Source: Alphaproteobacteria bacterium
GTDB taxonomy: Bacteria > Pseudomonadota > Alphaproteobacteria > VGEJ01
Reading direction: 5' to 3'
Assembly (NCBI GenBank): GCA_965226045.1
Contig: CBDDBU010000021.1
Coordinates: 1 to 64,000, forward strand
Length of the DNA stretch: 64,000 bases
Shown here in pieces: positions 30,647-49,770 of this stretch; positions within the stretch are counted from its first letter, which is position 1; the number at the start of each line of letters is the position of its first letter. A program made the translations under genes and the position numbers. The notes below the pieces were generated by a model. The model made no database searches, was not told the DNA's origin, and saw only the letters and a list, made by a program, of their open reading frames with translations.

Positions 30647-33064
30647 CTAAGTCGTGGCCCGCGCCATGGCCTCTATCAGGCTCCAGACATTCTCGAAGGT
30701 GACGTCTGCGAACTCGCCCCGCTCGCTTAGGTCCCTCAAAAGACGCACCGCCTGAACCATCGCTTCGTCGGCGCCCGCGGCGTCTGTCAATATCGTGACC
30801 GCCTCGGCCAGCGGAACCTCCCGTGCCTCGCGCGTGCCTAGGGTCTCGCCCACGAGCGCGGCGAGTTGCTCATAGGCGCGCCGAATCGACGCGGGGTCGT
30901 CGTCGGACCGACCAAAGACGCCGCGCACACCGTTGGCCGCGAAGCGACGGCGCAGGCCCTCGGGCATCGACTGTGCGAGCCCCTCCAAGACCTCGCCGAG
31001 GCCGAAGCCGGTGGTGAACATGCCGCGGACGGTGTCCATGGTGCCGTCGCCGCCGCCGTACATGCGGATTTGGGCGTTCTGTAAGGCGTTACCCATGGCC
31101 TTGGCCTGGTCGATATGGACGTCGCGCTCGGCCTCGATATAGAGTTTCGAGAGTTCCAGGAAAGTAGCCGCCTCGTTGTATTTCTTGAGCGCCACCGCCT
31201 TGGCCTCTAGTCCGGTGGCCTCGGCCGCCAGCCGTCGTTGATCGTTCGCGACCCGAAGCGCATCAACCTCCATTTCCGCGCGGCCCGCAGCGCCCGCTTC
31301 ACGCTCGATGCCTTCGGCGCTGATCTTCTGGGCATCGCTGAGGGCGTGCGCCCGGACCCGCGTCGCCTCCGCCTCGAGCGCCGCCGCCTGGCGCCGGGCC
31401 TCGGCCTGGCTCACCATGTGCATGCTCGTGATTTCGGCTTTTCTCTCCTCTTCGATGCCCTGCCGCTCGGCCAGCTTCTCCGCATCGATGCGCTCGATCT
31501 CCTTGTCGCGCACGGCATTCGCTAGGGGGCGCACCGACTCCATGTCGTGCTCGGCGCGCTCGCGCTCGGCCGTGGTCTCAAGGCGCTTGGCCGCGACCTC
31601 TTCAAGCTCGCGGGTCTTCTCGACCAACACGATCTCGCGATCGCGCTCCTCCACCTCGCGCGCTAGAAAGCGATGAATGTCGACCCTCTCGCGCTCTTGT
31701 TCCTTGGCGATGAGCGCGATCTCGCGCTCCCGCTGCTCGAGTTCGACCGCCAGGATCTGGCGCAACTCGGCGCGGCGCAACGCCTCCTCCTTAGCGATCT
31801 CCTCGGCCTGAACCTCCCAGCGCTGCTGCAGCACATACCGCTGCTGCTCGCTCAAAATCCGCGCCTTTTCGTTGGAAATCTCCTGCTCCTGGCGGGCCGC
31901 CGCCACGGCCTCTTCCTTGTCGGTATCCAGCGTCGCGAGCTTGGTCGCGAGCTGACGCTGATGCATCGCCAGCGTCACCGTTTCGGTCGCCTTGTGGCGC
32001 TGGTTGCGCGCCTCCTCCTCGTCGGTGGCGATAGCGGTGGCCCGCTTGATCTCCGCCAGTTCCCGCTCTTTTTCCTTCTCGATGAGCGTGATTTCCTTGT
32101 CCTTGCGCTCCTGCTCCAAGGCCAGAGATCGATGAATTTCGCTGGCCTCGCGTTTCTGCGCCTCTTCCGTGAGAGATACCTCCCGCTCGGTCCGCTGACG
32201 CTCGAGCGCCACCTCGTTGGTGAGTTCCTGCTCCTCGACGGCGCGTCGCTGGTTGAGTACGAAGATCTGCTTCTCGCGGACGTGGAGGGCTTGGTCGTTC
32301 GAGACCGACTTGTCCTGATCGGCGCGCGCGAAGGCTTCCTGCCGCTCGATCTCGAGCAGCTCAAGCTGGGTGTCCAATTCTTTCTGGCGAATGGCGACCG
32401 AGGTCCGCTTCTCGGTATCGTGCACCACCCGGCGCGCGTTGGACGTGATCTCGGTGATGATCTTGAGACCCTCGGCGTCGAACACGTTCTCGGCCTTGAA
32501 GTACTCCTTGCCCGTCTGTTCAAGGGTGACGATCGTGACCTCTTCGAGGACCAGGCCATTGGCGCTGAAGCCTTCGACCGCATTGGCCTTGATCGCCTGG
32601 GCGAAGATGTCGCGGTTCTCATGCAGCTCGCTCAGGGTTTTGGTGGCGGCGTAGCTGCGTAACGCGCTGACTACCTTGGCCTCGAGCAGGTTGCGGATCT
32701 GCTCGGCATCGAAGGTTTTGTCGCCGAGGCTGCGGCTTGCCGTCAGCAGATGGTCGACGGTGTGGCCGACGTGGGTGTAGAGCTCGGCGACGACATCGAC
32801 GCGAATCTTGTCGGCCGTCAGGATCGCCTGATCGCGCGATCGGCTGACGATCAGCTTGATCGTCTCAAGCGATACCCAGGTGATCTCGTGGAAGACGGGG
32901 AGAACGATCACGCCCTGGCCTAGGCACACCTTCGTGCCCAGAAAGCCGGTGCGGATGAACCCCATGTTGGCGGGGGCTCGTTTGTAGACCCAGATCGAGA
33001 GGATATAGATGATCGCGGCAACAATGATCGCGATGACAAAAACAATGATCACATTTTCGACCAT
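30647..33064 (-). CDS. Flotillin-family protein (SPFH/Band-7 domain plus very long E/A/R-rich coiled coil), YqiK-like
   Basis: 805 aa. N-terminal TM helix and SPFH domain (GFIRTGFLGTKVCLGQGVIVLPVFHEI ...), then ~450 aa of heptad-like EA-repeat coiled coil and a C-terminal flotillin-type tail. Confidence 0.75.
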   Translation of the reverse strand: MVENVIIVFVIAIIVAAIIYILSIWVYKRAPANMGFIRTGFLGTKVCLGQGVIVLPVFHEITWVSLETIKLIVSRSRDQAILTADKIRVDVVAELYTHVGHTVDHLLTASRSLGDKTFDAEQIRNLLEAKVVSALRSYAATKTLSELHENRDIFAQAIKANAVEGFSANGLVLEEVTIVTLEQTGKEYFKAENVFDAEGLKIITEITSNARRVVHDTEKRTSVAIRQKELDTQLELLEIERQEAFARADQDKSVSNDQALHVREKQIFVLNQRRAVEEQELTNEVALERQRTEREVSLTEEAQKREASEIHRSLALEQERKDKEITLIEKEKERELAEIKRATAIATDEEEARNQRHKATETVTLAMHQRQLATKLATLDTDKEEAVAAARQEQEISNEKARILSEQQRYVLQQRWEVQAEEIAKEEALRRAELRQILAVELEQREREIALIAKEQERERVDIHRFLAREVEERDREIVLVEKTRELEEVAAKRLETTAERERAEHDMESVRPLANAVRDKEIERIDAEKLAERQGIEEERKAEITSMHMVSQAEARRQAAALEAEATRVRAHALSDAQKISAEGIEREAGAAGRAEMEVDALRVANDQRRLAAEATGLEAKAVALKKYNEAATFLELSKLYIEAERDVHIDQAKAMGNALQNAQIRMYGGGDGTMDTVRGMFTTGFGLGEVLEGLAQSMPEGLRRRFAANGVRGVFGRSDDDPASIRRAYEQLAALVGETLGTREAREVPLAEAVTILTDAAGADEAMVQAVRLLRDLSERGEFADVTFENVWSLIEAMARATT

Positions 33065-33143: not shown

Positions 33144-35444
33144 TCAAACCCCCAGCCACGCCCCGTTCGCCGATCGACGCTCCCCGAAATCGAAGACCGG
33201 GAGGTCCTTGCGCTCGCGCTTTAGGTTCTTGCGTCGTTCTTGGGTCGCCCTCTGATCAACCTGCACAGGCGTGCCGACCACGACCACGCCATAGGCGTTG
33301 CTTGCCACGTCCGCTGTCATCAGCTTCCGCGCCACATCGTTGCGCACCCGCGACGGGTCGCGCTCCAGGGCGTCGCCCCAGCCCCCGCCGCCGGCGGTGC
33401 GAAAGACGATACGATCGCCGCGCCCGACTTTGACGTTGTCGATCTTCGAGGGCAGGGACTCGCGACCACCGTCGGCTCGCTCCAGCCATTTTGATGAGCA
33501 CGCGCCGGGCCTGCCGCCGAGAATCCCCCAGGGCTGGGTGAGGTGCCGATCATCGTGGATCGATATCTCGCCCGCCTCGAGAAGCAAGTAGACCTTCTCC
33601 ACGCCATTGCCCCCGCGATGCTTGCCGGCGCCACCGGTGTCGGCGACGCTGCCATAGCGCTCGATGATCATCGGATAGTAGCTCTCAAGGTACTCGGTGG
33701 GGATGTTCTCGAACAGCGGCCACCACGAGTGACCATCCAGGCCATCGCCGATCGGGCGACCGGGAATGCCGCCATAGAGAATCTCCATCAACTGGAAGCC
33801 GCGCCCATCGCGGTCCACGCCCGAGTAGAGGAAATGCGGGCTTGAGCCATAACCTGCGGCCGTCGCCATCTCGGGCGCATTGCGGCTAAGCGCGCCGCCC
33901 AGCACATCGAACTGCCGCGACAGGGCGTGGGTGCGACCGCCGAGCGCCGCCGGGAAGGTCGGGTGGACCAGCGAACCCTCCGGCATGGTGACGTGGATGA
34001 GGTCGTAGAAGCCATCGTTGAAGAGAATCTGGGGGTCGAACACCATGATCATGTAGACCCCGATGAACATCTTGAACATGCCCTCGTGGAGATAGAAGTT
34101 GATCGGCCCCGGCGATTGCGGCGCGGTGCCGGTCCAATCGAAGTAGGCGTGCTCGCCCTCGCGCCACACGGTGAGCTTCATCTTGAAGGGACCATTGCCG
34201 AGGCCGTCGTCGTCGACATAGTCCTCGAACGACTGCGGCTCCTCCGGCAAGTTCTGGACGATGAGTTGGCGCATGGCGCGGTTGGTCCGTTCCAGCAAGG
34301 CCTCGCAGGCCTGCCTGTAGGTCTCCTTGCCGAACCGCTCGCAAATCTCGATTACCCGTTTTTCGCCGGCCCGGCTGCCGGCGATGATTGCCATCAGGTC
34401 GCTGTAGTTCATTTCGGGCGTGCGCGTGTTGTTCATGATCAAGTCGATCGCCGACTTGTTGAGTTCTCCGCGCTCGTAGATCTTGATCGGCGGGATCTTC
34501 AGACCCTCGCCAAAAATCGAGGTAGCGGCGGTCGGCATGCTGCCTGGCACCGGGCCGCCGACATCCATCACGTGGCCGAACATCGAGCTGAAGCCGACCA
34601 TCTCCCCGTCGTGGAAGATCGGCACCAGCACCATCCAGTCATTGATGTGGCTGATCGCCCCGCCGCATTTGTAGGGATCGCTCTGTAGAATTACATCGCC
34701 GGGATAGAGTTCGAAGTTCTGGGCTGCCAGCATCTCCGTGACATAGGAGCCGAACTGGCCGACGATCATCCGGCCCTTGGCGTCGGTGATCATGGGGAAC
34801 TCGTCATGCTGCTCGCGAATGACCGGCGACATGGCCGAGCGAAACAGCACCGCGTCCATCTCGTGGCGGGCGTTGCGCAGCGCGTTCTCGACCAGATCCA
34901 GCGTGATCGTGTCGAGCCGCCCGCGCGACGCGCGCTCCGTGCGCGACGGCTCTGGCAGGGGCGAGGCCGCCCCGCGCCCACCGCTGCTAGACGGCTGAGG
35001 CGGCTCATCTTGTTCGCGGGCCGCCGCCCCGGAGCCGAACAATTCGGCGCAATGCGCCAGCGCGTCGGCGGTCGCGCGGCGCAGCGCCGCACCTTCGTCG
35101 CCGTTGACCCGGGCCGAGCCGAACTGCGATTTCGTCACGCCGTCAACCTCGAGTTTGCAGAGCACGGTGACCATACCGTTCTCGGTCTTACGATTGACCA
35201 CCTCCGAGGACCAGCCGGGGCCGAACCGGGCATTGAGCGACGCCCCCACATCGCCGTCGCGTTCAGCGCTCATGACGTCCACGCTCGCAGACGCCAAGTC
35301 CTCGCGCGTTGCGGGCCGATGAGTGACGCCGAGCAGGCCGAAGTCGCGCTTCTGAGCATCGAGAATCTTGTCGAACTGCTGCTTGTTCGTCTTCATCAGG
35401 TCGTCGAGCGACAGGCTTTGGAAACGCGGGTTCAGGTCCGACAT
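33144..35444 (-). CDS. Hydantoinase B / oxoprolinase-family subunit (HyuB-like) with ~175-aa N-terminal extension carrying Rad52/Sak-like motifs
   Basis: 766 aa. The HyuB core starts near LDTITLDLVENALRNARHEMDAVLFRS, with no in-frame start codon in front of it. The N-terminal extension contains NARFGPGWSSEVV and ALRRATADALAHCAELFG, resembling the Rad52/Sak N-domain motifs (FGY.GW...; EAVSDALKRCAKAFG). Starts 13 nt after the hyuA stop. Confidence 0.75.
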   Translation of the reverse strand: MSDLNPRFQSLSLDDLMKTNKQQFDKILDAQKRDFGLLGVTHRPATREDLASASVDVMSAERDGDVGASLNARFGPGWSSEVVNRKTENGMVTVLCKLEVDGVTKSQFGSARVNGDEGAALRRATADALAHCAELFGSGAAAREQDEPPQPSSSGGRGAASPLPEPSRTERASRGRLDTITLDLVENALRNARHEMDAVLFRSAMSPVIREQHDEFPMITDAKGRMIVGQFGSYVTEMLAAQNFELYPGDVILQSDPYKCGGAISHINDWMVLVPIFHDGEMVGFSSMFGHVMDVGGPVPGSMPTAATSIFGEGLKIPPIKIYERGELNKSAIDLIMNNTRTPEMNYSDLMAIIAGSRAGEKRVIEICERFGKETYRQACEALLERTNRAMRQLIVQNLPEEPQSFEDYVDDDGLGNGPFKMKLTVWREGEHAYFDWTGTAPQSPGPINFYLHEGMFKMFIGVYMIMVFDPQILFNDGFYDLIHVTMPEGSLVHPTFPAALGGRTHALSRQFDVLGGALSRNAPEMATAAGYGSSPHFLYSGVDRDGRGFQLMEILYGGIPGRPIGDGLDGHSWWPLFENIPTEYLESYYPMIIERYGSVADTGGAGKHRGGNGVEKVYLLLEAGEISIHDDRHLTQPWGILGGRPGACSSKWLERADGGRESLPSKIDNVKVGRGDRIVFRTAGGGGWGDALERDPSRVRNDVARKLMTADVASNAYGVVVVGTPVQVDQRATQERRKNLKRERKDLPVFDFGERRSANGAWLGV

Positions 35445-35457: not shown

Positions 35458-37536
35458 TCACGGTCCGCTCGAGCCGCCCGATCGGGCGCCGCCCTGGGGG
35501 TAGATCAAGATGTTCAAGTACTCGTCGACGTCACCCACATGATCGGGATGAATGACGGTTGTCGTATCGTCTTGCAGGATCACCGCTGGGCCGAGCACAC
35601 GGTGGCCCGCGACCAGAAGGGTCCGATCGTAGATATTGGCGGTTAGGAAGTTGCCGTCGAAATAGACGCGATGCTGTTCGACCACGGCGGCGGACGCGTC
35701 CGGGCCGCCCTTCTCGAAGCTCGGGAAGCTAACCTTGGCCACTTGGCCGGTGCCGACCGCCCGCAGGTTAACGAGCTCGACGGGCGCATTCACCTTGAAG
35801 CCATAGAGACGCTCGTGGGCGGCGCCGAAGCGGCTTTCGATATCGCTCAGGCCACCGTTGCCGAGGGCGTCGGGATTGACGTCGAGGGAGAACTCGTAGC
35901 CTTGGCGGAAGTAGCGCACGTCGACTTGATAGTGCAGCTCCTGGCGCCCGTCGTCGATACCTTCTTCCTGCAGCCAAGCCCTCGCATCTCGTCCCAGTTC
36001 CGTCAGAATCTGATTCACCTGGGCCGCCCCGGCGTCCTCGATGTTGCGAATGAAGGTCCGGGCAAACTCGTTCTTGACATCAGAGTAGAGGAAACCGAGC
36101 GCCGACAGCACGCCCGGCGTCGGCGGGATGATGACTGGAAAGCAGTCGGCCAAGCGGCCCACGGCGTTGCCATGCAACGGGCCCGCGCCGCCAAACGCCA
36201 CCAGCACGAAGTCGCGCGGATCGAGCCCCTTTTGCACTGTCACCAGTCGCAAGGCGCCCAACATGTTCTCGTTGACGATGTCGAGAATACCCTGAGCGGC
36301 CGCGTGGACATCCAAACCGAGCGCGTCGCCGATCTTGGCGATGGCGGCCTCGGCCGCGCCGGCGTCGAGGGCCATCTCGCCGCCGAGCAGGCTGGGCGGT
36401 AGGTGGCCCAGCACCACGTTCGCGTCGGTCACCGTCGGCAATTCGCCGCCCCGGCCGTAACACGCCGGCCCCGGCACGGCGCCCGCGCTTTCCGGCCCCA
36501 CGCGCAACGCGCCGGTCATCGGCACATGGGCGATGGAGCCGCCGCCCGCGCCAACGCTGTGCACCTCGACCGAGGGCACCTTGACCGGATAGTAGCCGAG
36601 CGAGGTCTGCCGCGAGATGGTCGGCTTGCCCTCCTGGATCAACGACACGTCGGTGGACGTGCCGCCCATGTCGAAGCCGAGCGCTTGTGGGTATCCCGCC
36701 AGTGAGGCAATAAAAGCGGCGCCCGAAACTCCGCCCGCCGGCCCCGACAGCATAGTGAGTACCGGAAAATCGCTGGCCCTCTGGACGCTCATGAGTCCGC
36801 CGTCGGAGCGCACGATGTTGACGTGGGGAGAGAACTGAATCTCGCGCAATCGGTTCTCGATGCCGTGTAGATACCGGCGCACGCTGGGCCGCACATAGGC
36901 GTTCATCACCGCCACCAGCGTGCGCTCGTATTCGCGGAACTCGGGCAGGATTTCGGAGGACAACGAAACGGTCATGTCGGCGTCGAGCTCGCCCACGAGA
37001 TCCTTCAGCCGCTCTTCGTGGAGCGAATTGGCGTAGGAGTGGAGGAGCGAAACGGTGATCGCCTCGGCCCCCAGGTCGATCAGTTCGCGGATCGCTGCCC
37101 GCGCATGCTCCTCGTCCAGCGGCGTCATGATCTCGCCACGCGCGGTGACGCGCTCGCGAACGCCACGGGTCAACTCCAAGTCGGCCATCAGCTCGGGCTT
37201 GATCATGGTGATCCAGCCCGCCAACGGGCCCGGGGTCTGGGATCGCGCCAGGTGCAGAACTTGTTCGAAATTCTCGGTCACCAGAAGTCCGACCTTCGCG
37301 CCCTTGCCTTCCAAGACGATATTGGTCGAGACCGTTGTGCCGTGGAGAAGCGCCCGAATGTCCGCCGGCGCGACGCCCGATTCGGCGACGATCTTGTTGA
37401 TGCCGGTAAGTATACCGACCGATTGGTCGTGGGGGGTTGACGGCGTCTTCAGCAGGCGCAGGGCGCCGGTATTCTCGTCGAACAGCAGCAAGTCCGTAAA
37501 CGTGCCACCGACATCGACGCCGAGGCGGCGGCTCAT
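35458..37536 (-). CDS. Hydantoinase A / oxoprolinase-family subunit (HyuA-like; acetone-carboxylase beta-like)
   Basis: Start set at MSRRLGVDVGGTFTD (ASKHA-fold ATPase N-terminus). About 692 aa. Confidence 0.85.
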   Translation of the reverse strand: MSRRLGVDVGGTFTDLLLFDENTGALRLLKTPSTPHDQSVGILTGINKIVAESGVAPADIRALLHGTTVSTNIVLEGKGAKVGLLVTENFEQVLHLARSQTPGPLAGWITMIKPELMADLELTRGVRERVTARGEIMTPLDEEHARAAIRELIDLGAEAITVSLLHSYANSLHEERLKDLVGELDADMTVSLSSEILPEFREYERTLVAVMNAYVRPSVRRYLHGIENRLREIQFSPHVNIVRSDGGLMSVQRASDFPVLTMLSGPAGGVSGAAFIASLAGYPQALGFDMGGTSTDVSLIQEGKPTISRQTSLGYYPVKVPSVEVHSVGAGGGSIAHVPMTGALRVGPESAGAVPGPACYGRGGELPTVTDANVVLGHLPPSLLGGEMALDAGAAEAAIAKIGDALGLDVHAAAQGILDIVNENMLGALRLVTVQKGLDPRDFVLVAFGGAGPLHGNAVGRLADCFPVIIPPTPGVLSALGFLYSDVKNEFARTFIRNIEDAGAAQVNQILTELGRDARAWLQEEGIDDGRQELHYQVDVRYFRQGYEFSLDVNPDALGNGGLSDIESRFGAAHERLYGFKVNAPVELVNLRAVGTGQVAKVSFPSFEKGGPDASAAVVEQHRVYFDGNFLTANIYDRTLLVAGHRVLGPAVILQDDTTTVIHPDHVGDVDEYLNILIYPQGGARSGGSSGP

Positions 37537-37671
37537 GACCCCTTTAGTCCCCCGACCCAGCGGTGCGCACCTCGCTCGCGGCGCTCGGAACTCCCGCCTA
37601 AACTGGTTGTCGTCATCCCTGGCTTTGGTATATTGCCCAATGCCTCGCCGCTGCCCATACCCGCTCTGATC

Positions 37672-38199
37672 ATGGCACAAGAAACCGTTGGCCCGCGCAA
37701 ACCCCGATTCTTCATCGTTGGCGTGGGGATCATTATACTATTGGTGTTTCTCTATTTTTACCGACCATTTGAAGATTACTTTACACAAGGCATTCGGGAC
37801 GTTGATTCATCCAATATAGTTTTCTGGTCTGCTTCTCTGGTGGGCATACTCGCCTACATGATCTCTCATTGGCGGTCCTTCCGCCACAACATCTTTCGCG
37901 ATGTCACCAACCTCGACATCGAGACGCTGGTCTTCGACACGCTACAGATCGCCATCCTGGTCGCCGTCATCTTCTGCGCCGGCGCGATCCTGCAGGAAAT
38001 CGAGATGCTGGCCGAGCATCTGATCGAACGCGGAACCATCGTAGGGCCGGTGTTCGGCGGCGGACTGCTCTCGATCATACTTCTGTTTATTCTTGCGGTC
38101 GCGTTCTATCTCCTGCATCGCATGGTGCGCGGCTTTCGGGTGGGCTGGCGTCCCGGCCGGCCGCGGCCGAGATCGCGGTCGACCGCCCGCCTGCCCTAG
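37672..38199 (+). CDS. Small membrane protein, hypothetical (paralog of 24061..24525)
   Basis: Start set at [19 protein letters not shown] / FLFYYEPFEELF and HWRSFR / HWRAYR are conserved between the two paralogs. Confidence 0.5.
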
Positions 38200-39302
38200 C
38201 CGGCGGCGGCGGTCGACCGCGCGGGACCGCCGACGAACGGTTGGCGCTTGATGAAGTCGTCGGCGATCTCGTCGAAGGTGTGCCAGCGCACGCCGGAGTG
38301 GCTCGAGATGTACTCGATCATCCGCTCGATCATCAGCAACACCTGGGGCCGGCCCGAGATGTCGGGGTGGATGGTCAGGGTGAACACCGCGTAGTCCATC
38401 TCGCGGTAGACCCAGTCGAACTGATCGCGCCACCACTCCTCGATATCGCGCGGGTTCACCCAGCCGTGGCTGTTGGGCACGTTCTTCATGAACATCAGCG
38501 GCGGCAGGTCGTCGAGGTACCAGCTGGCCGGGATCTGCACGATCGGCACGGTGGTGCCGAGCTCCATCGGCTTCATCCAGGTGTGGGCCGGCTTGCCGTA
38601 GTCGATCAGCGTCCATGACTCGCCGACCCGGGTCCAGAACGGTGTGAAGTCGTTGTGCATCTGGCTGTGGTCGTACTTGATGCCGCGCTCGAGCAAGAGC
38701 TGTGGCGTCGCCAGGCTCATCTCCCACCACGGCGCGACGTTGCCGCTGGGCGTGCGGCCCGAGATTTTCTCGATCAGCTCGATGCCCTTGTCGAGGATCA
38801 CAGCCTCCTGGTCGGGCGTCATCTGCACCGGGTTCTCGTGGGTGTAGCCGTGCAGGCCAATCTCGTGCCCCTCGTCGGCCACCCGCGTCATGATGTCGGG
38901 CCAGGTCTCGATAGTATGACCGGGGATGAACCAACTGGTGCGCAGGTCCACGCGCTTCAGCATATCCAACATGCGCGGCGTGCCGATCTCGGCCGAAAAC
39001 ACGCCGCGGCCGATGTCGCTGGGCGAATCGCCACCGCCATAGGAGCCGATCTGCCCGGCCACCGCATCAACGTCGATGCCGATGGCGCACAGAATGTCCT
39101 TCTTGCCGCCGCCTGACGCCGAGCGTGCCGTCGCTCCCGCACTGGTCCCGGGCAGGCTCGATCCCGCGCCGGTTTCCCGCGCCGCGGCCGCCGACGCACC
39201 GATCGGACGCGGACTGTAGCGCGGCCCGATGCCGCCGCCGGGCGCCACGGCATCGGATCGCCCCGGATGTCCACGGAACCCAGAATCAGAACGATCGCTC
39301 AT
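38196..39302 (-). CDS. Polysaccharide-deacetylase-family (NodB-fold) amidohydrolase
   Basis: 368 aa. Deacetylase-type DVD and His motifs. The N-terminal ~60 aa is low-complexity, so the true start is uncertain. Confidence 0.65.
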
Positions 39303-39482
39303 GACGATACCCTTCCCTGCCGGTCAATTCATTTTCAGGCAAGCCGCACTCGGCTCGATCTCTCGTCTTCTGATACAACCCACTCCACGGCCGATCAACT
39401 GGGCCGCGTTGATCGGCCAGGGACCAGGCGCTATCGTGACGGGGCGCTATCGTCGTCAATGAGAGCTGGCTCGGAGGCCGAG

Positions 39483-40214
39483 ATGAGCGATTGGCGACAA
39501 GACACACGCGAGGACTACCAGCGCAAGGGCCTTGGCGTGCGCGCGGGCTATGGGGCCAAACCAGTCCTCTTGCTGGTCGATTTCATCAATGGATTCACCG
39601 ACCCCAGCACGCCGCTGGGCGGCGATCTCACGGGCCAGATCGCGGCGACCAAGAGGCTGCTGGCCGAATGCCGCGCCCAGGGCCAAACCATCGTCTACAC
39701 GACCATCGCGTACGCGCCGGATCTGCGCGACGCCGGGATGTGGATCAAGAAGATTCCTTCTCTGGAGATTCTGACAAAAGGATCACCGATGGTCGAGATC
39801 GATGAGCGCGTTCGTCCCCGCCGCGGCGAACGCGTGGTCGAAAAGAAGTTCGCGAGCGCGTTCTTTGGTACCTATCTCGACGCCTATTTGCGCGGTCTTG
39901 GCATCGACACCGTCATCATGACGGGCTGCACCACCAGCGGCTGCATCCGCGCCTCGGCGGTGGACTCGATCCAGTACGGCTACTACACGGTCGTGGTCGG
40001 AGACGCTGTCGGCGACAGAGCGAAGGGCCCGCACGACGCGAATCTGTTCGATATCGAGGCCAAATACGGCGATGTGGTCTCCAGCCACGAGGTGCTAACG
40101 TACCTCCGATCGCTCGAAGGCACGGACGGTCTTGCTGGCCAGGCCAACGTTGATTTCCGGCGCTGGTGGGGTGCGGAATCGCCGCCGGCCGAGGATCGGC
40201 GCCGTGGGGCATAA
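39483..40214 (+). CDS. Isochorismatase-family cysteine hydrolase, second paralog
   Basis: Start at MSDWRQD. Motifs LLLVDFINGF and MTGCTTSGCIRAS, collinear with 22073..22714. Confidence 0.7.
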   Translation: MSDWRQDTREDYQRKGLGVRAGYGAKPVLLLVDFINGFTDPSTPLGGDLTGQIAATKRLLAECRAQGQTIVYTTIAYAPDLRDAGMWIKKIPSLEILTKGSPMVEIDERVRPRRGERVVEKKFASAFFGTYLDAYLRGLGIDTVIMTGCTTSGCIRASAVDSIQYGYYTVVVGDAVGDRAKGPHDANLFDIEAKYGDVVSSHEVLTYLRSLEGTDGLAGQANVDFRRWWGAESPPAEDRRRGA

Positions 40215-40263
40215 CGACGGAGCGCCCAACGAGGCCGGGAGGCTCTCGGCGCGATTCGACGAG

Positions 40264-40722
40264 ATGTTGGAGACCAGTCGGCGCGACCTGGACGCGCTCT
40301 ATCGCGACGAAAACGGCAAGCCGTCGAGGCTCGTGCTATCTCGCGCGGCTCGATCGGCCCATACATCATCCTCGGAGCGGGCCGTCAGCGGCTTCGATCC
40401 AAGATCAACCCCGACCGCACGCGTCCTCGACGATTGGTTCGGCGGTCGCTGGCGCTTTGAGATCACCGACCGCCGCCACGATGGCGACGAGGTGGTGGTG
40501 AGCGGGCGCGTCGTGGTCGAGAATCAAGGCATCGAAATGTCGGGCACCGGACGCGCCGCCGTTGCCACCGGAAACGCGGCGATCGAAGGAACGACGGCGG
40601 GTGTCGTCTTCAGGGTCAAGCCCACGCACGCTATGGCGCGCGACAGCGTTGGCGGCCCGGAAGACTCCGCTTTCCGCCAGGCCGCCGCCGTGGCGCTCGC
40701 GCGTTGCGCGCAACTCCCGTAG
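40264..40722 (+). CDS. Hypothetical protein, paralogous to the N-terminal extension of the HyuB-like protein (weak Rad52-like motifs)
   Basis: Start at MLETSRR. WFGGRWRFEI ... EDSAFRQAAAVALARCAQL parallels the HyuB N-terminal FGPGWSSEV ... EGAALRRATADALAHCAEL. Strong GC3 bias. Confidence 0.4.
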   Translation: MLETSRRDLDALYRDENGKPSRLVLSRAARSAHTSSSERAVSGFDPRSTPTARVLDDWFGGRWRFEITDRRHDGDEVVVSGRVVVENQGIEMSGTGRAAVATGNAAIEGTTAGVVFRVKPTHAMARDSVGGPEDSAFRQAAAVALARCAQLP

Positions 40723-40789
40723 GTCAGTTGCCGGCGAACGAGTTAATTTGGCGCAAGACCTCCTGTGGGCGGCTTTGTCAGACTAGCTG

Positions 40790-41052
40790 GCGTGAGCCGG
40801 CCGATCAGACCCGGTCACCACTCGACCGAACCGGTTTCACCAGAACCCGACCGTCTCCTGGCAGATATCGATGCCGCGCTCGGACAGAAGGTCCTCGACT
40901 TGGCGCAGCGACAGCGGATAGCGGACATACATCATCACCGCCAGGCGGATCACCTCGGGCGAGCTGTTGAAGTAGCGGACGGGATCGCGCATTGCCGAAA
41001 GCTGAGGAGCCTCGCCAGGGGCCTCAAGCCGATTTACTCTGACAATGCCCCC
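40790..41052 (-). mobile_element. IS6-family element, 5' fragment (IRL plus first ~60 codons of transposase), truncated
   Basis: GGCATTGTCAGAGTAAATCGG inverted repeat and MRDPVRYFNSSPEVIRLAVMMYVRYPLSLRQVEDLLSERGIDIC are identical to the complete copy at 48855, then diverge. Confidence 0.7.
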
Positions 41053-41246
41053 TGCATCTCTATACCGAAGCGTTGCTATCGGCGGTCCCGGTGCCCGATC
41101 CGGCCGTCCGCAGCAAAAGGCGGATCCTGCTGGAGGGAGACGTGCCGAGCCCAATAGACCCACCCTCGGGCTGCCGGTTTCACACCCGGTGTCCGTACGT
41201 CGAGGCGCGCTGCCGCACCGGGACACTGGGTCGCCTGCCACATGCG

Positions 41247-42725
41247 CTAACAGCCCGTTGACGAAGTCTTCCCTGGACGAAGTCGGCATGGTCTGATTCT
41301 CTGGTGTCCTGGCCTGAAGGGGGGTTCGCTGATGGCGATGGGACAGCAGAAGGATCGTCAGGGGGACTTGATGGTGAGCTGGTCGGAGATGCCGCGCTCG
41401 CCAGGTCATGTATTTTACGACCGCCTGCAGTTGGTACTGATCGAGGGCGGCTTCGACGGCTTCGCCGAGGCGGTCTGCCAGCCCTATTACGCGGCCAGGA
41501 TGGGGGCGCCTTCGGTGCCACCCGGGCGCTACTTCCGTATGCACCTGGTGGGCTACTTCGAGGGTATCGACTCTGAGCGTGGGCTGGAGTGGCGCTGCTC
41601 GGATTCCCTGTCGCTACGGGAGTTCCTGCTGTTGGAGATGCGGGAACGGGTGCCGGACCATTCCTGGCTGTCACGGACCCGCGCGCGCCTGCCCCATGAA
41701 GTCCACACGGCGGTGTTTGACTGGGTCCTGGCGCTGATCGCCGAGGCGGGTCTGGTGAAGGGCGAGCGCATCGGGGTGGATGCCTCGACCATGGAGGCCA
41801 ACGCGGCGCTGCGCAACATCGTGCGGAGGGACACGGGCGAGGGTTACCGGGGGATGCTGGAGCGCTTGGCCCAGGAGAGCGGTATCGAGACACCCACGGC
41901 TGAGGACCTGGCGCGTCTGGACCGCAAGCGCAAGGGCAAGAAGCTCTCGAACCAGGACTGGGTTTCCAGGAGCGACCCCGAGGCCAAGATCGCCAAGATG
42001 AAGGACGGCACCACGCACCTGGCCTACAAGCCCGAGCACGCGGTGGATCTGGACACCGGCGCGGTGGTGGCGGCGGAGCTGCACCCGGCCGACGAGGGCG
42101 ATACGACAACGCTTCCCAAGACCCTGGCGGCGGCCGAGGCAAACCTCGAGGCGGTGGATGTGGCGCCGACGGCCGAAGATCCGGCCGAATGTGTGACCGA
42201 TAAGGGCTACCACTCACGGTTGGTCTTGAAGGCGCTCGACGACGGCCCCTGGAAGAGCCGGATCTCCGAGCCCAAGCAGAAGGGTTTTGCGCGCTGGCAC
42301 GGAGATGATGCGGCTCGCCGGGCGGTCACCAACAACCGGACCCGGCTGTTATCGGGGGTGGCCAGGGAAGCCTTCAAGCTGCGCGCCGAGATCGTCGAGC
42401 GCTCCTTTGCCCACAACCTCGATCGCGGCGGTATGCGCCGGACCTGGCTTCGGGGCCGCGAGAACGTGCACAAGCGATACCTGCTTCACGTCGCCGGCCA
42501 CAACCTATCGTTGCTGATGCGCCAACTCATCGGCGCCGGCACCCCGAAGGAGGCCGTGGCGGGCGGAATTGGCGCCTTGTTCGTGCTTGTTACGCCCGCT
42601 GGAGCCGTCCTGGTCGTTCAGATCGTCCTCATCGTCTCGGAGGATGGCGAAACCGCCTTCGCCGCGATATGCTTCGCCGTGGCGTGAAACCCGGTCAATG
42701 ACGCCTTTTTCAACGGGCTGCTAAG
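41247..42725 (+). mobile_element. IS5/IS1182-family insertion sequence (~1.48 kb)
   Basis: Inverted repeats CTAACAGCCCGTTGACG and CAACGGGCTGCTAAG. Single 451-aa DDE transposase. Confidence 0.75.
41332..42687 (+). CDS. IS5/IS1182-family DDE transposase
   Basis: 451 aa. Conserved N-region (GRYFRMHLVGYFEGIDSERGLEWRCSDSLSLREFL) and C-terminal DDE_Tnp_1-like region (VTDKGYHS ... ERSFAHNLDRGGMRRTWLRGRENV). Confidence 0.8.
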   Translation: MAMGQQKDRQGDLMVSWSEMPRSPGHVFYDRLQLVLIEGGFDGFAEAVCQPYYAARMGAPSVPPGRYFRMHLVGYFEGIDSERGLEWRCSDSLSLREFLLLEMRERVPDHSWLSRTRARLPHEVHTAVFDWVLALIAEAGLVKGERIGVDASTMEANAALRNIVRRDTGEGYRGMLERLAQESGIETPTAEDLARLDRKRKGKKLSNQDWVSRSDPEAKIAKMKDGTTHLAYKPEHAVDLDTGAVVAAELHPADEGDTTTLPKTLAAAEANLEAVDVAPTAEDPAECVTDKGYHSRLVLKALDDGPWKSRISEPKQKGFARWHGDDAARRAVTNNRTRLLSGVAREAFKLRAEIVERSFAHNLDRGGMRRTWLRGRENVHKRYLLHVAGHNLSLLMRQLIGAGTPKEAVAGGIGALFVLVTPAGAVLVVQIVLIVSEDGETAFAAICFAVA

Positions 42726-42734
42726 GGCGGCGCG

Positions 42735-43709
42735 CTAGAAATGGCGGTCGAATGAGCCGTTCCACTGGGCGTAGATGCTCCCCAGCTGGTCCACCACCCG
42801 CATCACCGCGTCGATGGGAATCCCGTCATCGCCGATGAAGTTGGGGTCCATGGTGCCACCGTCCAGGCACCCTAACGCCACCACTCCCTCGACCAGCTTC
42901 TTGACAGTCTTCCCATCGACCATCAGATCGCGATTGCTCGTCCCTAAGGCGAGCGCCGTGGCCACGCCGTAAGCGCCGTAGTTGGAGACCGCAGCGGAAA
43001 ACAGGTGCTTGGTCGCCGTGGTGGTGGCGGTGCCGCCGCCGCAGGGGCAGCCGCACTCGGCGCCGAACAACACGATCTCCCGGACCTTGTCGTGGATCTT
43101 GCCGAAGCCGATCTCGTTGCCGCCATCGCCGATGCCGACCGTCAACTTGCCCTTGTCGTTCATCGCCTCGATGAAATCGTCGATGTAGTAATCGCCGGTC
43201 TTGGCGAGCGGCGTCCCCATCACCGAGTGGCGGATTCCTTCCCGGTTGCGACCCAGCTTCTCGATGGTGACGGCGATGTCGTAGTGATCGGCCCATGCCA
43301 TGAGCTCCTCGGGCGCGCGATCGGTGGTGTGGACAATATTGCCCTCGAATCCGAGCGTGTCGATAAGGCTGCTCACCACATCGTGCATGTCCCTCTCGAC
43401 CATGATATCGACGTTGTGACCGAGCAGGCTCAGCGCCCGTCCCAGCACGGCGGCGCCGATCGGGCCATCCACCTCCCCCTTGGGCAGGTGGCCCTCAAGG
43501 ACGATGCCGGTGACCATGGCCACGTTAGCGTTCTGCATTCCTAAGATGGCCTGGGAAATATCGTAGGTGACCGGGTTCTCACCGCGCGCAAGCTCGTACA
43601 GCGGGCGAATGAAGCCCTGCAGCATGTTGTGCGGGCGCATTTCGGTGGTCAGCAGCAGCTCCAGGTTTTCATAGGGCGAGCGGGGATCGACGTTCATTTC
43701 CTTGGCCAC
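42735..43709 (-). CDS. Hypothetical protein (possible DUF4392 / cyclase-like), orphaned between IS elements
   Basis: 324 aa, strong GC3 bias. Motifs GIGDGGNEIGFGKI and CGCPCGGG. Family assignment is from memory only. Confidence 0.35.
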   Translation of the reverse strand: MAKEMNVDPRSPYENLELLLTTEMRPHNMLQGFIRPLYELARGENPVTYDISQAILGMQNANVAMVTGIVLEGHLPKGEVDGPIGAAVLGRALSLLGHNVDIMVERDMHDVVSSLIDTLGFEGNIVHTTDRAPEELMAWADHYDIAVTIEKLGRNREGIRHSVMGTPLAKTGDYYIDDFIEAMNDKGKLTVGIGDGGNEIGFGKIHDKVREIVLFGAECGCPCGGGTATTTATKHLFSAAVSNYGAYGVATALALGTSNRDLMVDGKTVKKLVEGVVALGCLDGGTMDPNFIGDDGIPIDAVMRVVDQLGSIYAQWNGSFDRHF

Positions 43710-43740
43710 GATTTGCCTCCTTTGTTCAAGAACGGACGGA

Positions 43741-44148
43741 TCATTGGTTGGTGCGGGGATCGAGCGCGTCTCGCAATCCGTCCCCGATGAAGTTCATGTT
43801 CAGCACGGCGGCGGCGATCATCACCGTGGGAAAGGTCACCAACCACCAAGCCTCTTCCAGATATCGTCACGCCTCATTCAAGTCGCGGCCCCAACTGGCG
43901 GTGGGCGGCTGAACGCCCAAGCCCAAGAAGCTTAAGGAGGCTTCCGCGATCACCGCCCGGGAAAAGGTAACGGCGATCAGCACGACGATCACGCCGATGA
44001 TGTTGGGCACAATGTCCCCTAGGATAACGCGCCAGTTGGGAGCGCCCAGTGCCACCGAGGCGGAGACGTACGCATTCTCGCGTAGGCTCAACGTATTGCC
44101 GCGCGCGAGCCGCGCGAACACGGGGATATACACCAAACCCACCGACAA
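43741..44148 (-). pseudogene. ABC transporter permease (DppC/OppC-like) 3' fragment, frameshifted and 5'-truncated by the IS3 insertion
   Basis: Frame A reads ILGDIVPNIIGVIVVLIAVTFSRAVIAEASLSFLGLGVQPPTASWGRDLNEA then stops. Frame B continues WWLVTFPTVMIAAAVLNMNFIGDGLRDALDPRTNQ (canonical C-terminus). Confidence 0.65.
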
Positions 44149-44223
44149 AATTGTCCATCGTCAGAATGAATGGGACAGCATCGGCGTTTTCTTAGTGGAG
44201 GGTCTGGCTCATGGCGGTTGATG

Positions 44224-45453
44224 TTAGGTCGCTTGCTTGTGGTGGGCCAAGCGGCGTTTGCGGATGGTCAGGTCTTTGATCTCTCTCCTTCTCTCGATGG
44301 TGGCGTGGTCGCGGCCGAAGTAGACGTCAGCCGGCGTTAGATTGCCGAGGCTTTCGTGATAGCGGCGGTGGTTGTAGCGCTCGATCAAGACGCCGATGCT
44401 GACCTCAAGATCGCCCGGCAGATAGTAGTTCTCCAACAGGACGCGGTTCTTCAGGGTCTGATGCCAGCGCTCTATCTTGCCCTGGGTCTGGGGATGGTTT
44501 GGCGCGCCCCGGACGTGATCCATACCCTGGTCCTCGAGCCAGTTGGCGAGATCACCGGCGATGTAGGACGAGCCATTGTCGCTGAGCAGACGGGGTTCGT
44601 GAACGACCTCAGCCTTGCCGCAGCCTGATGCCTGCAGGGCTAGCGTGAGGGTCTCGGCCACGTCGTCCGCCCGCATGGTGGTGCACAGCTTCCAGGCGAT
44701 GATGTAGCGCGAGAAGTCGTCCAGGATCGTTGACAGATAGAACCAGCCCCATCCGATGACCTTGAAGTAGGTGAAGTTGGTCTGCCACAGCTGGTTGGGC
44801 GCGGTGGTCTTATCATGGAACTCATCGGCTGCCTTGATGACGACGAAGACCGGGCTGGTGATCAGGTGGTGGGCCTTGAGCAGGCGGTAGACGGACGCCT
44901 CCGAGACGAAGTAGCCCTTGGTGTCGGTGAACGTTGCTGCCAGTTCCCGTGGCGACAGCTCCGGCTCATCCAAAGCCAGGTCAACGATCTGGCTGCGGAT
45001 ATCGTCCGGGGTACGGTTCCACACCCGGCCGGGACCGCAGCTACGGTCTTCAAGACCGGCTTCATCAAAGGCCTGGTAGCGGTCGTACCACCGGTAGAAT
45101 GTTGTCGTCGTAATACCCAGCTTGTCCAACGTCCGCCGGACCGATAGATGGGGGTGTTCAACCAGCCGGATGATCTCCAGCTTCTCGGAGGCGGGATACC
45201 TCATTCGTCGTCTCCCCCAGCCCCGGCCATGCGGTTTTGAGCAGCCGGTTCTCCAGCACCTGTTCGGCAAGCGCCTCCTTGAGGTCGCGCATCTCGCGGC
45301 GCAGGTCCTTGACCTCACCTGAGGACGCCTGGCGCGCGGTATCGCCCGAAAGCCGTTTCTTGCCGGCCTCGAGGAACTCCTTCGACCAGCTGTAATACAG
45401 ACTCTCGGCGACCCCTTCCCGGCGGCACAGCTCAGCGATGCTGTCCCCACCAC
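44224..45453 (-). CDS. IS3-family transposase OrfB (HTH_21 plus rve integrase core); expressed as OrfAB by -1 frameshift, the 5' part overlaps orfA
   Basis: rve motifs LWQTNFTYFKV ... SDNGSSYIAGDLANWLEDQGMDHVRGAPNHPQTQGKIERWHQTLK. Confidence 0.75.
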   Translation of the reverse strand: MVGTASLSCAAGKGSPRVCITAGRRSSSRPARNGFRAIPRARRPQVRSRTCAARCATSRRRLPNRCWRTGCSKPHGRGWGRRRMRYPASEKLEIIRLVEHPHLSVRRTLDKLGITTTTFYRWYDRYQAFDEAGLEDRSCGPGRVWNRTPDDIRSQIVDLALDEPELSPRELAATFTDTKGYFVSEASVYRLLKAHHLITSPVFVVIKAADEFHDKTTAPNQLWQTNFTYFKVIGWGWFYLSTILDDFSRYIIAWKLCTTMRADDVAETLTLALQASGCGKAEVVHEPRLLSDNGSSYIAGDLANWLEDQGMDHVRGAPNHPQTQGKIERWHQTLKNRVLLENYYLPGDLEVSIGVLIERYNHRRYHESLGNLTPADVYFGRDHATIERRREIKDLTIRKRRLAHHKQAT

Positions 45454-45574
45454 GCAGGCCCGACAGCACGATCCGGATCTTCTCTTCGGCCGAATACTGC
45501 TTGCGCGTCTTGCGGCGAATATTCCGCACCGTCCGATCGGCGCTGTCTCTCGAACTCATCGATCTCTGTCCCAT
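45158..45574 (-). CDS. IS3-family transposase OrfA (HTH plus leucine zipper)
   Basis: 138 aa. RKTRKQYSAEEKIRIV ... SLYYSWSKEF ... EVKDLRREMRDLKEALAEQVLENRLLK. Confidence 0.75.
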   Translation of the reverse strand: MGQRSMSSRDSADRTVRNIRRKTRKQYSAEEKIRIVLSGLRGGDSIAELCRREGVAESLYYSWSKEFLEAGKKRLSGDTARQASSGEVKDLRREMRDLKEALAEQVLENRLLKTAWPGLGETTNEVSRLREAGDHPAG

Positions 45575-45687
45575 CTTCGTTCCCTTCGCTCACGACGATG
45601 AACCAGAAATCCTCCCTTATGAAATCACCTCAATCCGTCCCATAGGTGCTGACGTCAGACAAGCAAGCTAGCGGTACTCCCGTGTCT

Positions 45688-47313
45688 CTACGGACGGCGC
45701 GTGGTCCAATCGGTAGATGTCTCGAACGCGTAGGCCGCATTGAGCACCACGCCGTCCTCGAACTTGCGCCCGACAAGCGCCATCCCCACCGGCAGCCCCT
45801 CGGACATGGCGCAAGGCACGCTGATGGCAGGCATTCCCGTGATGTTGAACTGACCCCCGGAACCGACAAACATCTCAAAGGAGCGATGCACCGATTCCTC
45901 TGGGCCACAGTCTTCGGGGGGTAGCTCCGTCGCCTTGATAGGCGTGGCCGGCAGCACCAGCAGATCCACCTGTTGGAAAATTTCCTCGTAGGCCGCCGTC
46001 AGCTTGCGCGCGAGGTTCTGCGCCTTGGCGTAGTACTTGCCGTGGTAGTTGTTGTGAAGATAGGCGCCCGTCAACATGAACGTCTTCGCTGATGGCGACA
46101 AGTCGTTGGCGCGCCTCGGCAACGCGCGGGCGAAGTACTCCAAGAGATGGGTGTTGTAGAAACCCGCCCAGCCATGCCCCATGCCGTTGCCCAGGATAAG
46201 GGTGCCGTATGTGCCCTCCAAGGCCATGGCCACCAGGATCGCCTGCCCGTCGCGGTGGGCTGGCACGGAAACGGAGCTGACTTCGGCGCCCAGCGTCTCA
46301 AAATGCTGCGCCGCATCTCTCACCGCCTGATCGACATCGGGCTGGGAGACGCCCTCATAGCCAAATCCGTCCTCCAGGATGCCGATGCGCAGGCCGTCCA
46401 CCTTGCCGGTGAGAGCCACGGAATAGGCTTCCGGCGTGAACTCGGGCTGGCGGGGGTCCAGTCCGTCCGGTCCGGCGACCGCCTCCAGCAGCAGCGCCAC
46501 GTCCCGCGTCGAATTGGCCATGGGCCCGACGTGGTCCAGCGTCGGTTCCATCGGGATCGCGCCGGTGTAAGGGACCACGCCCATGGTGGCTTTCATGCCA
46601 TAGATGCCACACCACGAGGCCGGCAGCCGCACCGAGCCCCCCTGATCCACGCCGATAGCCATATCCACTTCCTTGGCGGCGACCAGCGCCGCGCTGCCAT
46701 TGGAAGAGCCGCCCGAGGAACGGGAGGGATCGTGCGGATTGCGCACCGGCCCCGTGAGGGAATTGTGGCCCGCTCCGCCAAAGGAGAAACCCTCGCTGGC
46801 CGCCTTGCCGGCGATGATGCCCCCGGCATGCAGAATGCGGGTGACTACGGTGGCATCCACATCGGGTACGAAGCCCTCCATCACCGCGGTGCCGGCAGCC
46901 ATGGGCACCCCGGCGACGCAAATGACGTCCTTCAGGACCACCCGCTTGCCCGCCAACAAGCCATCGGATGCGCCCTTGATCTCGGTCTTGTAGTACCAGG
47001 CGTTGTAGGGGTCTTCCTCGGGTTCCGGGCGGCGCCCCGGCGTCCGGGGGTATTTCACCGCCGGCTTGGGCTCCACCATCGTATCGATGGCCGCGTAGGC
47101 GGCCAGGTTCTCGATGATTAGGCTACGGTATTGCTCCAACTCGCTCGTCGCCATCGTGAGATGTAGCGACTCGGCGAGGGCTCTCGTCTCGTCTACCGTC
47201 GGGGGGCGTAGTCGCACTGGCCAATCCCGCAAGAATCGGTAAGTGTAGACGCCAATGCTACAGCGCGCACCGAGCGGCTTCAAGATACGACGAGCTCGCC
47301 CTGTCAATGACAC
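45688..47313 (-). CDS. Amidase-signature (AS) family amidase
   Basis: 541 aa as listed (an alternative start at Met54, position 47154, gives ~488 aa). Signature [37 protein letters not shown] (Ser-cisSer-Lys family). Confidence 0.8.
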   Translation of the reverse strand: [541 protein letters not shown]

Positions 47314-49661: not shown

Positions 49662-49770
49662 ATTTCGGGCTTCTTCATGGTCCTCGGGCGTCGCGTCGAA
49701 CGCGGCGTAAACCCGCGCGATCTCCGCTTCGACTTCGAGGAACCGCTGGTCCGGTTTCTCAGACCGCGCC

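Follow-up and report, generated by a model that had tools for sequence, protein, structure and literature searches.

A predicted Rad52-superfamily domain, fused to HyuB and encoded as a free protein, in a conserved hydantoinase-type gene module

The stretch of DNA analysed here, referred to below as the window, comprises 64,000 nucleotides (nt) of contig CBDDBU010000021.1 (assembly GCA_965226045.1), from an alphaproteobacterium, and carries genes for a hydantoinase-type system, among them those encoding HyuA, HyuB and an isochorismatase-like hydrolase. This report concerns a small gene located downstream of the latter and the N-terminal extension of HyuB, which its product resembles. A first-pass annotation had pointed to an open reading frame (ORF) of 152 amino acids (aa) at 40264-40722 (+ strand), containing the strings WFGGRWRFEI and EDSAFRQAAAVALARCAQL, as a standalone paralog of the HyuB N-terminal domain, and had proposed that the two copies make up a dedicated accessory module of the system. 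Those strings are indeed found in the translated window sequence, as are FGPGWSSEV and EGAALRRATADALAHCAEL, which lie within the 177-residue extension of the 766-aa HyuB ORF (33144-35444, - strand). The layout of the small gene (the free copy) and of HyuB, whose extension holds the fused copy, is as follows, with assignments to the Rad52 superfamily being predictions justified further below.

40204..40722, + strand: free Rad52-like gene, 172 aa, start GTG 40204, stop TAG 40720-40722, based on codon-position GC, the database protein P0001 and dN/dS
40234..40299, + strand: family-specific N-terminal helix, free copy residues 11-32, RLSARFDEMLETSRRDLDALY, based on the AlphaFold2 (AF2) helix at 11-32, a motif present in both paralog families and a hidden Markov model (HMM) of the helix
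40300..40410, + strand: variable, predicted-disordered linker, free copy residues 33-69, of varying length and sequence, with confidence (pLDDT) <50 at 39-61
40411..40713, + strand: predicted Rad52-superfamily core, free copy residues 70-170, consisting of a helix, three strands and a crossing helix
40561..40656, + strand: insertion of ~30 residues, placed after strand 3 and before the crossing helix, of free-family type (G-[ST]-A-x-G-V-x-F), not present in the fused copy, with low AF2 confidence
35025..35444, - strand: predicted Rad52-like domain fused to the HyuB N-terminus, residues 1-140 (N-helix 13-36, linker, core ~62-137)
34914..35024, - strand: variable linker rich in Pro, Ala, Arg and Ser, HyuB residues 141-177, whose sequence differs in each locus while the flanks are conserved
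33144..34913, - strand: HyuB core (Hydantoinase_B/oxoprolinase), residues 178-766, PF02538, 498.7 bits

The small gene is coding, as had been supposed, although it does not start at ATG 40264 but at GTG 40204, which gives a product of 172 aa. This start was chosen because ATG 40264 falls within the conserved motif RLSxxFDEML and would halve it in the alignment of relatives, an AGGA is located 8 nt 5' of the GTG, and the resulting 11-nt overlap with the isochorismatase stop codon (TAA 40212-40214) reproduces the arrangement called in three related loci (L002-L004); in addition, one of two close relatives in a set of 5.8 billion proteins (P0001, 98% identical, 172 aa) is called from the same GTG. 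Both P0001 and the other relative (P0002, 68% identical, 166 aa) reach upstream of ATG 40264. The + strand is considered coding because between 40134 and 40700 its frame has the codon-position GC pattern of a gene (GC3 ~0.78, GC1 ~0.67, GC2 ~0.57), and because the ratios of nonsynonymous to synonymous substitutions (dN/dS, Nei-Gojobori) range from 0.09 to 0.49: 0.49 against L002, 0.23 against L005, and 0.09-0.33 for five pairs of another clade. The free gene is under purifying selection, looser than in typical enzymes, as expected because one third of the protein is variable linker. A scan for promoters and terminators around it gave nothing exceeding shuffled sequences.

These data bear on the trivial explanation that the frame is a chance ORF or a decaying remnant, its resemblance to HyuB being merely compositional. 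In this GC-rich genome, spurious long ORFs are frequent; a crude gene picker chose the antisense ORF here, owing to its overlap rule; the dN/dS value against the closest relative is fairly high; and insertion sequence (IS) elements crowd the region downstream. On the other side, besides the codon-position GC pattern, dN/dS stayed below 0.5 in all seven comparisons, orthologs with conserved motifs occupy the same position in around 60 loci, down to 30% identity, profile comparisons gave E values of 2.8e-12 and 1.9e-20 (see below), and 94 cluster representatives of the free type were found among the top 150 profile matches. The conservation data refute this explanation, to which we assign practically no chance of being right.

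Sequence comparison also shows the product of 40204-40722 to be a paralog of HyuB residues 1-140, in agreement with the initial proposal. In BLASTP with compositional adjustment, the free copy and the HyuB N-terminus align beyond chance, with E 9e-5 and 27% identity and with a single 29-residue insertion in the free copy. At the family level, hhalign gave 97.6% probability (E 2.8e-12) over 118 columns, and the match takes in not only the core but also an N-terminal helix, SxFD[DE][ML]L..N[KR].QFD.[LI][YF], that the first-pass annotation did not list. An HMM built from free-type proteins only, run against all six-frame ORFs of the window, retrieved the HyuB N-terminus with E 1.9e-20, the only other match being a 42-aa fragment with E 0.46. 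When the HMM was restricted to the N-terminal helix, exactly two ORFs, corresponding to the fused and the free copy, were detected in each of eleven sequences (the window and ten related loci).

The fusion to HyuB was examined in a first set of loci, consisting of 37 genome loci (all from Alphaproteobacteria metagenome-assembled genomes, or MAGs, and mostly from Xanthobacteraceae), four metagenome loci and the window, with counts given over 41 loci, the window and 40 related ones. In 33 of them the domain and the HyuB core share one uninterrupted frame, yielding proteins of 619-774 aa, and the remaining ones are frameshifted or cut by contig ends. The linker that separates the domain from the core has around 40 residues and is different in every locus. 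A word-indexed search with HyuB(1-156) had returned 18 apparently standalone homologs of the HyuB N-domain, which raised the idea of the fusion being an artefact of the window; this was rejected in view of the 33 in-frame fusions and of the short versions being frameshifts or contig ends. As a separate observation, most of those standalone database versions (P0003-P0020) are artefacts, produced by frameshifts or contig ends in long-read metagenome assemblies. Locus L001, for example, has both HyuA and HyuB broken into two parts, and in P0129 a frameshift joins an isochorismatase to the free gene.

The remainder of HyuB is a member of the Hydantoinase_B family, matching PF02538 over residues 178-691 next to a HyuA with all three of its Pfam domains. 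It falls below the NCBIfam equivalog cutoffs for caprolactamase beta, its best match (241.6 bits vs 1000), and for acetophenone carboxylase (127 vs 1500). A further architecture was found in a locus from a relative of Woeseia (Gammaproteobacteria; L066, 21214-22287, - strand), where a third HyuB-like protein, of 704 aa and running off the locus, bears the same core at its C-terminus, with ...ALRLRYGDQWSFEVAYYSQRGNIAEVRGEL...SATDVSFRRCVERLL. As read from the translated frames, the predicted domain occurs as an N-terminal fusion, as a C-terminal fusion and as a free protein.

Regarding its identity, profile-level comparisons show both copies to be divergent members of the Rad52/Rad22 superfamily of single-strand-annealing proteins (SSAPs). 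An exhaustive HMMER search of 1.84 billion proteins with a joint profile of both families retrieved 515 cluster representatives (clusters at 50% identity) at E <= 1e-3. The best 150 of these consist of 94 free proteins that end with the domain, 12 recognisable HyuB fusions, 40 fragments or frameshifted sequences, and four proteins with a G[VI]GL.L[YW] tail (P0134, P0150, P0156 and P0164). The latter were matched by the joint profile with library-wide E values from 4e-13 to 6e-11; at the same time they exceed the gathering score of PF04098 (Rad52_Rad22; 42-53 bits vs 20.3) and match phage Erf-, Sak- and SSAP-type PHROGs. With hhalign, these four proteins were aligned to the free family with 98.9% probability (E 1.7e-17) and to the fused family with 99.2% (E 3.7e-19). 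A profile of the same four bacterial proteins in turn reached, in the Protein Data Bank (PDB), human RAD52 (E 0.004), yeast Rad52 (E 0.011) and Mgm101 (E 0.25).

Direct searches did not make this connection. PF04098 gave no match at E <= 1 for the free protein or HyuB, nor for six further members (three free proteins and three HyuB fusions), so that neither copy belongs to the curated family. Pfam, NCBIfam and PHROG scans of both copies produced no meaningful match, and when PDB sequences were queried with the family itself, by phmmer and as a profile, no Rad52 was found, only noise such as AcrIF5 with E 0.02. Names in the databases are 'hypothetical protein' for the free proteins and '5-oxoprolinase' for one fused protein. 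The predicted structures point in the same direction as the profiles: a Foldseek comparison with viral models had a phage 'Rad52/59/22' protein as first hit (E 1.4e-4), followed by SAK3 and ERF proteins. The fold alone would not decide the identity, because the alpha-beta3-alpha class is shared with double-stranded RNA-binding domains (dsRBD) and uS5, as it is with ribosome-hibernation factors, and it is the sequence profiles that decide. By homology to bona fide members and by fold, a three-stranded beta-sheet crossed by an alpha-helix, the domain qualifies for the superfamily. We propose a new family, the 'HyuB-associated Rad52-like domain', defined by the helix S-x-FD-[DE]-[ML]-L..[NS][KR].[QR][FL][DE].[LI][YF], a variable linker, an alpha-beta3-alpha core ending in AL..C, and location in a module with HyuAB, SPFH and isochorismatase genes; both window copies match this sequence-based definition.

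The AF2 models of the two copies share their topology, which answers the structural comparison suggested at the outset. The free copy is predicted to contain a helix at 11-32, a disordered stretch, a helix at 70-79, strands at 83-93, 96-105 and 110-119, the low-confidence insertion, and a helix at 152-170; in the fused copy a helix at 13-36 is followed by a low-confidence stretch, a helix up to 77, strands at 78-88, 91-100 and 103-112 and a helix at 117-143, with a pLDDT of ~90 in the core. The N-terminal helix of both has hydrophobic residues at the spacing of an amphipathic helix. Some free members (P0061, P0146 and P0147) do not have the insertion, and free proteins end a few residues past the crossing helix.

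According to a structural survey of the superfamily, the two hallmark motifs are the sheet, crossed by a helix, and the beta-hairpin, both essential for annealing, with the hairpin clamping single-stranded DNA (ssDNA) together with the sheet and the outer face of the sheet setting the curvature of rings and filaments (PMC11783212). No beta-hairpin precedes the first core helix in either AF2 model. In human RAD52 the hairpin carries R55 and Y65, and K152, R153 and R156 are basic residues of the inner DNA-binding groove, a numbering consistent with the profile alignment. When aligned through the four bacterial members, R55 and Y65 fall in a segment, 'R....G..LsY', kept by the canonical bacterial proteins; this segment has no counterpart in the free or fused family in the joint alignment, where the disordered linker and the new N-helix are found instead. 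Of 94 free representatives, 49 have Ala and 10 a basic residue at the K152 equivalent; 52 have Lys or Arg and 22 have Asn at the R153 equivalent; and 37 have Glu or Asp, 18 Ala and 17 a basic residue at the R156 equivalent, a position at which none of 12 fused representatives is basic. At the K152/R153 equivalents, KK or RR is found in all four canonical bacterial proteins. The domain therefore has neither the hairpin nor the conserved basic K152/R153/R156 positions of a functional annealase. The net charge of the core, ~0 to -1, is similar in canonical cores and does not discriminate.

The DNA-binding features are counted as lost because the hairpin is absent, the R55/Y65 segment has no counterpart and the K152, R153 and R156 positions are not conserved. 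Retained binding of nucleic acids (ssDNA or RNA) has nonetheless been considered, either as a moonlighting regulator of the operon mRNA or, in the most exotic version, as a means of targeting a hydantoinase-type enzyme to hydantoin lesions in DNA. Membership of the Rad52 superfamily, a fold class common to dsRBDs and ribosome-hibernation factors, the basic residue often kept at the R153-equivalent position and a conserved Arg-rich strand in the free family would all agree with such a role. The missing hairpin with its R55/Y65 equivalents, the prevalence of Ala and acidic residues at the K152 and R156 equivalents, a surrounding cluster devoted to catabolism and transport of small molecules and, for what a non-discriminating value is worth, the core net charge make it very unlikely.

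The genetic context of the two copies is conserved. The other genes of the module in the window are listed here; mechanically called ORFs start too far upstream in three cases (39267-40214, +; 35458-37680, -; 37633-38199, +), and their starts were corrected from orthologs.

30647..33064, - strand: SPFH/Band_7 flotillin-like protein, 805 aa, PF01145
35458..37539, - strand: HyuA, 693 aa from ATG 37539, with the Pfam domains Hydant_A_N, Hydantoinase_A and Hydant_A_C; orthologs of 683-707 aa
37672..38199, + strand: small polytopic membrane protein, no Pfam family, conserved in loci
38196..39302, - strand: polysaccharide-deacetylase/PuuE-like hydrolase, PF01522, conserved in loci
39483..40214, + strand: isochorismatase-like hydrolase, 243 aa from ATG 39483, PF00857, 117 bits; the L002 ortholog also has 243 aa

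Around 65 loci from Alpha- and Gammaproteobacterial metagenomes present the order ATP-binding cassette (ABC) transporter, SPFH/flotillin, N-terminally extended HyuB (N-HyuB), HyuA, membrane protein, deacetylase, isochorismatase and free copy, so that the recurrence of the domain with HyuA and HyuB across genomes, which the first-pass annotation had suggested looking for, is borne out. By tblastn with the window proteins, the first set of loci has the module throughout, with an SPFH/Band_7 protein of 800-900 aa and with the free copy, present in 38 of the 41, right after the isochorismatase-like hydrolase. A second, independent set was seeded by divergent free-type proteins and is made up of 23 metagenome loci, scanned for with 12 closer sequences, plus L042. 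There, an isochorismatase-like gene (60-69% identical) directly precedes the free gene wherever upstream DNA is available, and the rest of the module is present in almost all loci whose upstream DNA is long enough; L049, on a 4.8-Mb contig, showed no match to HyuA, fused HyuB or SPFH within 10 kb. The module, together with the same ABC transporter, is also present in the Woeseia relative. In a plasmid collection the cluster was absent, the only matches being to the deacetylase, at ~74%. The placement of the free ORF downstream of the isochorismatase gene was correctly noted from the start; the two genes overlap in the window and overlap or abut in related loci. The three architectures are all tied to HyuB-type proteins, and their residence in one module combining transport and catabolism is strict.

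Some additional features of these loci can be mentioned. The small membrane-protein gene is located between the HyuA and deacetylase genes in all loci, and a paralog of it, 30% identical, lies in the window at 24061-24525 (+), beside a gene for a 348-aa polytopic membrane protein without family (22849-23895, +), both of which are kept in L066 (19562-20023 and 20099-21151). Many related loci contain a gene for a cobW-type GTPase, of the metallochaperone family (L001:4048-5073, L042:169-1585, L067:5790-7148), located between the deacetylase and membrane-protein genes in L001 and L067; in L042 and L067 a 103-108-aa ORF assigned to no family lies next to it. The window has neither the cobW gene nor the 103-108-aa ORF.

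In the window, collinearity with L002, its closest relative (86.9% nucleotide identity), breaks off exactly at the stop codon of the free gene (40721), beyond which the following mobile elements were identified.

~40837-41000, - strand: IS6-like transposase fragment
41332-42687: IS5-like element
44224-45453: IS3-like element
47433-48605, 48976-49653 and 52027-53049: further transposase genes

A D-glutamate-cyclase-like gene and an amidase gene lie among the IS elements (40723-53049). Upstream of the module, 14817-25948 encodes a CN-hydrolase, a PreA-like DHO_dh+4Fe-4S protein of dihydropyrimidine-dehydrogenase type, a family III CoA-transferase, a PEP-mutase/ICL-like enzyme, a second isochorismatase (47% identical to the first) and a cyclic amidohydrolase, and looks like a broader pyrimidine/amide catabolic island. 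With its ABC importer, the content of the island fits catabolism of nitrogen heterocycles or amides. An ATP-dependent HyuAB enzyme paired with an amidohydrolase of the isochorismatase fold is known from the route that converts N-methylhydantoin into N-carbamoylsarcosine and sarcosine, which, by analogy, the pairing in the window recalls.

One possible role suggested by this context is docking or targeting, in which the N-helix or the core would bind the SPFH/Band_7 protein and so bring HyuAB, along with the free protein and its partner, to an SPFH assembly attached to the membrane. NfeD partners of SPFH proteins and the encapsulation peptides of microcompartments are analogous cases. Wherever a locus offers enough DNA, in Alpha- and Gammaproteobacteria alike, the SPFH gene comes immediately after that for N-HyuB, and it is followed by the ABC-transporter ATPase; its product has an N-terminal transmembrane segment, around 400 residues of Glu/Arg/Ala-rich coiled coil and a C-terminal globular part, and no NfeD-type partner was found among the ORFs scanned. 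Both paralogs are laid out as helix, disordered linker and domain, and the helix motif is confined to them in the eleven sequences tested. This support comes from gene context, and the SPFH protein could belong with the adjacent ABC transporter instead; literature searches returned no paper joining 'hydantoinase' and 'flotillin'. We regard docking to the SPFH protein as quite unlikely. The specific idea of the N-helix being a microcompartment encapsulation peptide, an analogy only, was discarded, there being no shell genes among 38 window ORFs scanned.

The second role to be weighed is that of a regulatory or chaperone-like subunit, which would bind the HyuA/HyuB core, in cis in its fused form and in trans in its free form, controlling assembly, ATPase coupling or access to the active site. 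Small extra subunits of acetone and acetophenone carboxylases have control roles within the HyuAB-type enzyme family. The involvement of HyuB-type proteins in all three forms of the domain would agree with such a role, and so would the presence, around 500 nt after the free gene, with no gene in between, in about 30 loci, including most of those from Xanthobacteraceae MAGs, of a divergent hyuA2-hyuB2 pair (32-38% identical) whose HyuB2 has no such domain (L006-L035, L037-L041, L057, L062 and L063; for example L011:219-4056, -). On the other hand, the window, L002-L005 and several marine loci have no such pair and yet keep the free gene under purifying selection; the long flexible linker suits tethering better than a fixed regulatory contact, and there is no likeness to known gamma subunits in terms of Pfam matches. 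By analogy with the carboxylases a regulatory subunit is conceivable, yet unlikely. Separately from this argument, the dN/dS of the free gene seems higher in the clade without hyuA2-hyuB2 (0.23-0.49 vs 0.09-0.33), from few comparisons.

The explanation we favour, and hold tentatively as one that may well turn out otherwise, is that the domain assembles or tethers HyuB-type ATP-dependent amidohydrolases rather than annealing DNA, with the fused and free copies binding each other or a common partner. The domain would no longer anneal DNA and would have retained the self-association part of the Rad52 fold, that is, the sheet and the crossing helix. The fused copy would sit on HyuB through its flexible linker of ~40 residues, while the free copy would be translationally coupled to the isochorismatase-like hydrolase; through the core, the shared N-terminal helix or both, the copies might associate mutually or with a common partner and keep HyuAB together with the amidohydrolase acting after it in a single complex, which may lie at the membrane beside the flotillin-like scaffold. 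Dedication to HyuB is proposed because of the N-fusions, the C-fusion in L066 and the free form, which always lies in the same module; the free copy is linked to the isochorismatase because their genes overlap or abut and because both are absent within 10 kb in L036, where the fused copy is present. Of the initial proposal of a dedicated accessory module, the dedication to the HyuAB system is backed by the fusions, the adjacency and the helix HMM, while an accessory role would follow from co-occurrence.

Several observations weigh against the assembly explanation. The C-terminal part of the Rad52 N-domain contributes to ring packing in RAD52 structures, and the truncated domain does not have it, so self-association may be lost too. 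Some binding of nucleic acids may persist, because roughly half of the members are basic at the R153 equivalent and an Arg-rich strand, ERRR.GDE, is conserved in the free family. The free copy is dispensable in some lineages, because in L067 the corresponding position (3916-4575, -) is occupied by an isochorismatase-like gene and no free copy occurs within 10 kb. The partner of the free copy may also be HyuA2B2 and not the isochorismatase, because most Xanthobacteraceae loci place the free gene before hyuA2-hyuB2. Finally, all relatives come from metagenomes or MAGs. A bolder version of the assembly explanation, which we consider doubtful, would see here the first branch of the Rad52 superfamily acting outside nucleic-acid metabolism: the hairpin-less core would self-assemble, possibly into mixed rings of fused and free copies, and with the SPFH protein would organise HyuAB and the isochorismatase-type hydrolase as a membrane metabolon beside the ABC importer.

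Rad52-superfamily proteins have been described only as DNA/RNA annealing and recombination factors, and here a large branch, the 515 clusters mentioned above, appears without the DNA clamp and wired into a metabolic enzyme system. What is new is a known fold superfamily in a non-recombination setting, in a family covered by no Pfam, NCBIfam or PHROG model. Literature searches found no paper joining 'Rad52' and 'hydantoinase', and the words 'fusion' and 'non-DNA' do not occur in the large structural survey of the superfamily (PMC11783212). If the proposal is true, it widens the known uses of the Rad52 fold and offers a natural case in which the assembly role is separated from the DNA-binding role. 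In practical terms, the work flags a previously unannotated component, defines a conserved module of seven to eleven genes with an unusual SPFH partner, and indicates that many 'standalone' HyuB N-domain entries in databases are frameshift artefacts.

The closest known relatives are the bacterial and phage Rad52/Rad22 SSAPs of PF04098, with which the window family has in common a homologous helix, three strands and crossing helix, and the motifs LN..FG..WS.E(V/I)... V.VL.(K/R)L ... K.QFG ... AL(K/R).A..(D)AL..CA. Unlike them, it has no beta-hairpin (R...G..LsY) and no G(V/I)GL.LY tail, possesses an extra N-helix and a disordered linker, as well as the 30-residue insertion in the free family, does not conserve the basic DNA-binding positions, and is found in a metabolic context rather than in one of phages or recombination. 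Human RAD52 (5jrb, 1kn0), yeast Rad52 (8g3g) and Mgm101 (9yi6) were not reached by direct profile searches and are linked through bacterial intermediates only; the equivalents of R55, Y65, K152 and R156 of the human protein are missing or replaced. For dsRBD, the uS5 N-domain and alpha-beta3-alpha domains of the HPF/Rv1738 type there is no sequence-profile support, all sequence evidence pointing to Rad52_Rad22. With regard to the metabolic side, the gamma subunit of acetone carboxylase is a small extra polypeptide of a HyuA/HyuB-type ATP-dependent enzyme. Subunits of this type are likewise small, dedicated to such an enzyme and encoded in the same cluster, but no relation in sequence or fold was detected (no Pfam match), and the module in the window is also fused to the B subunit. 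A precedent for a RAD52-like motif in another architecture is RDM1, where a small motif of this kind is reused with an RNA-recognition motif (RRM) and the function is distinct from that of RAD52 (PMC11783212). RDM1 is eukaryotic and still binds nucleic acids, whereas the partner of the window family is a metabolic enzyme subunit.

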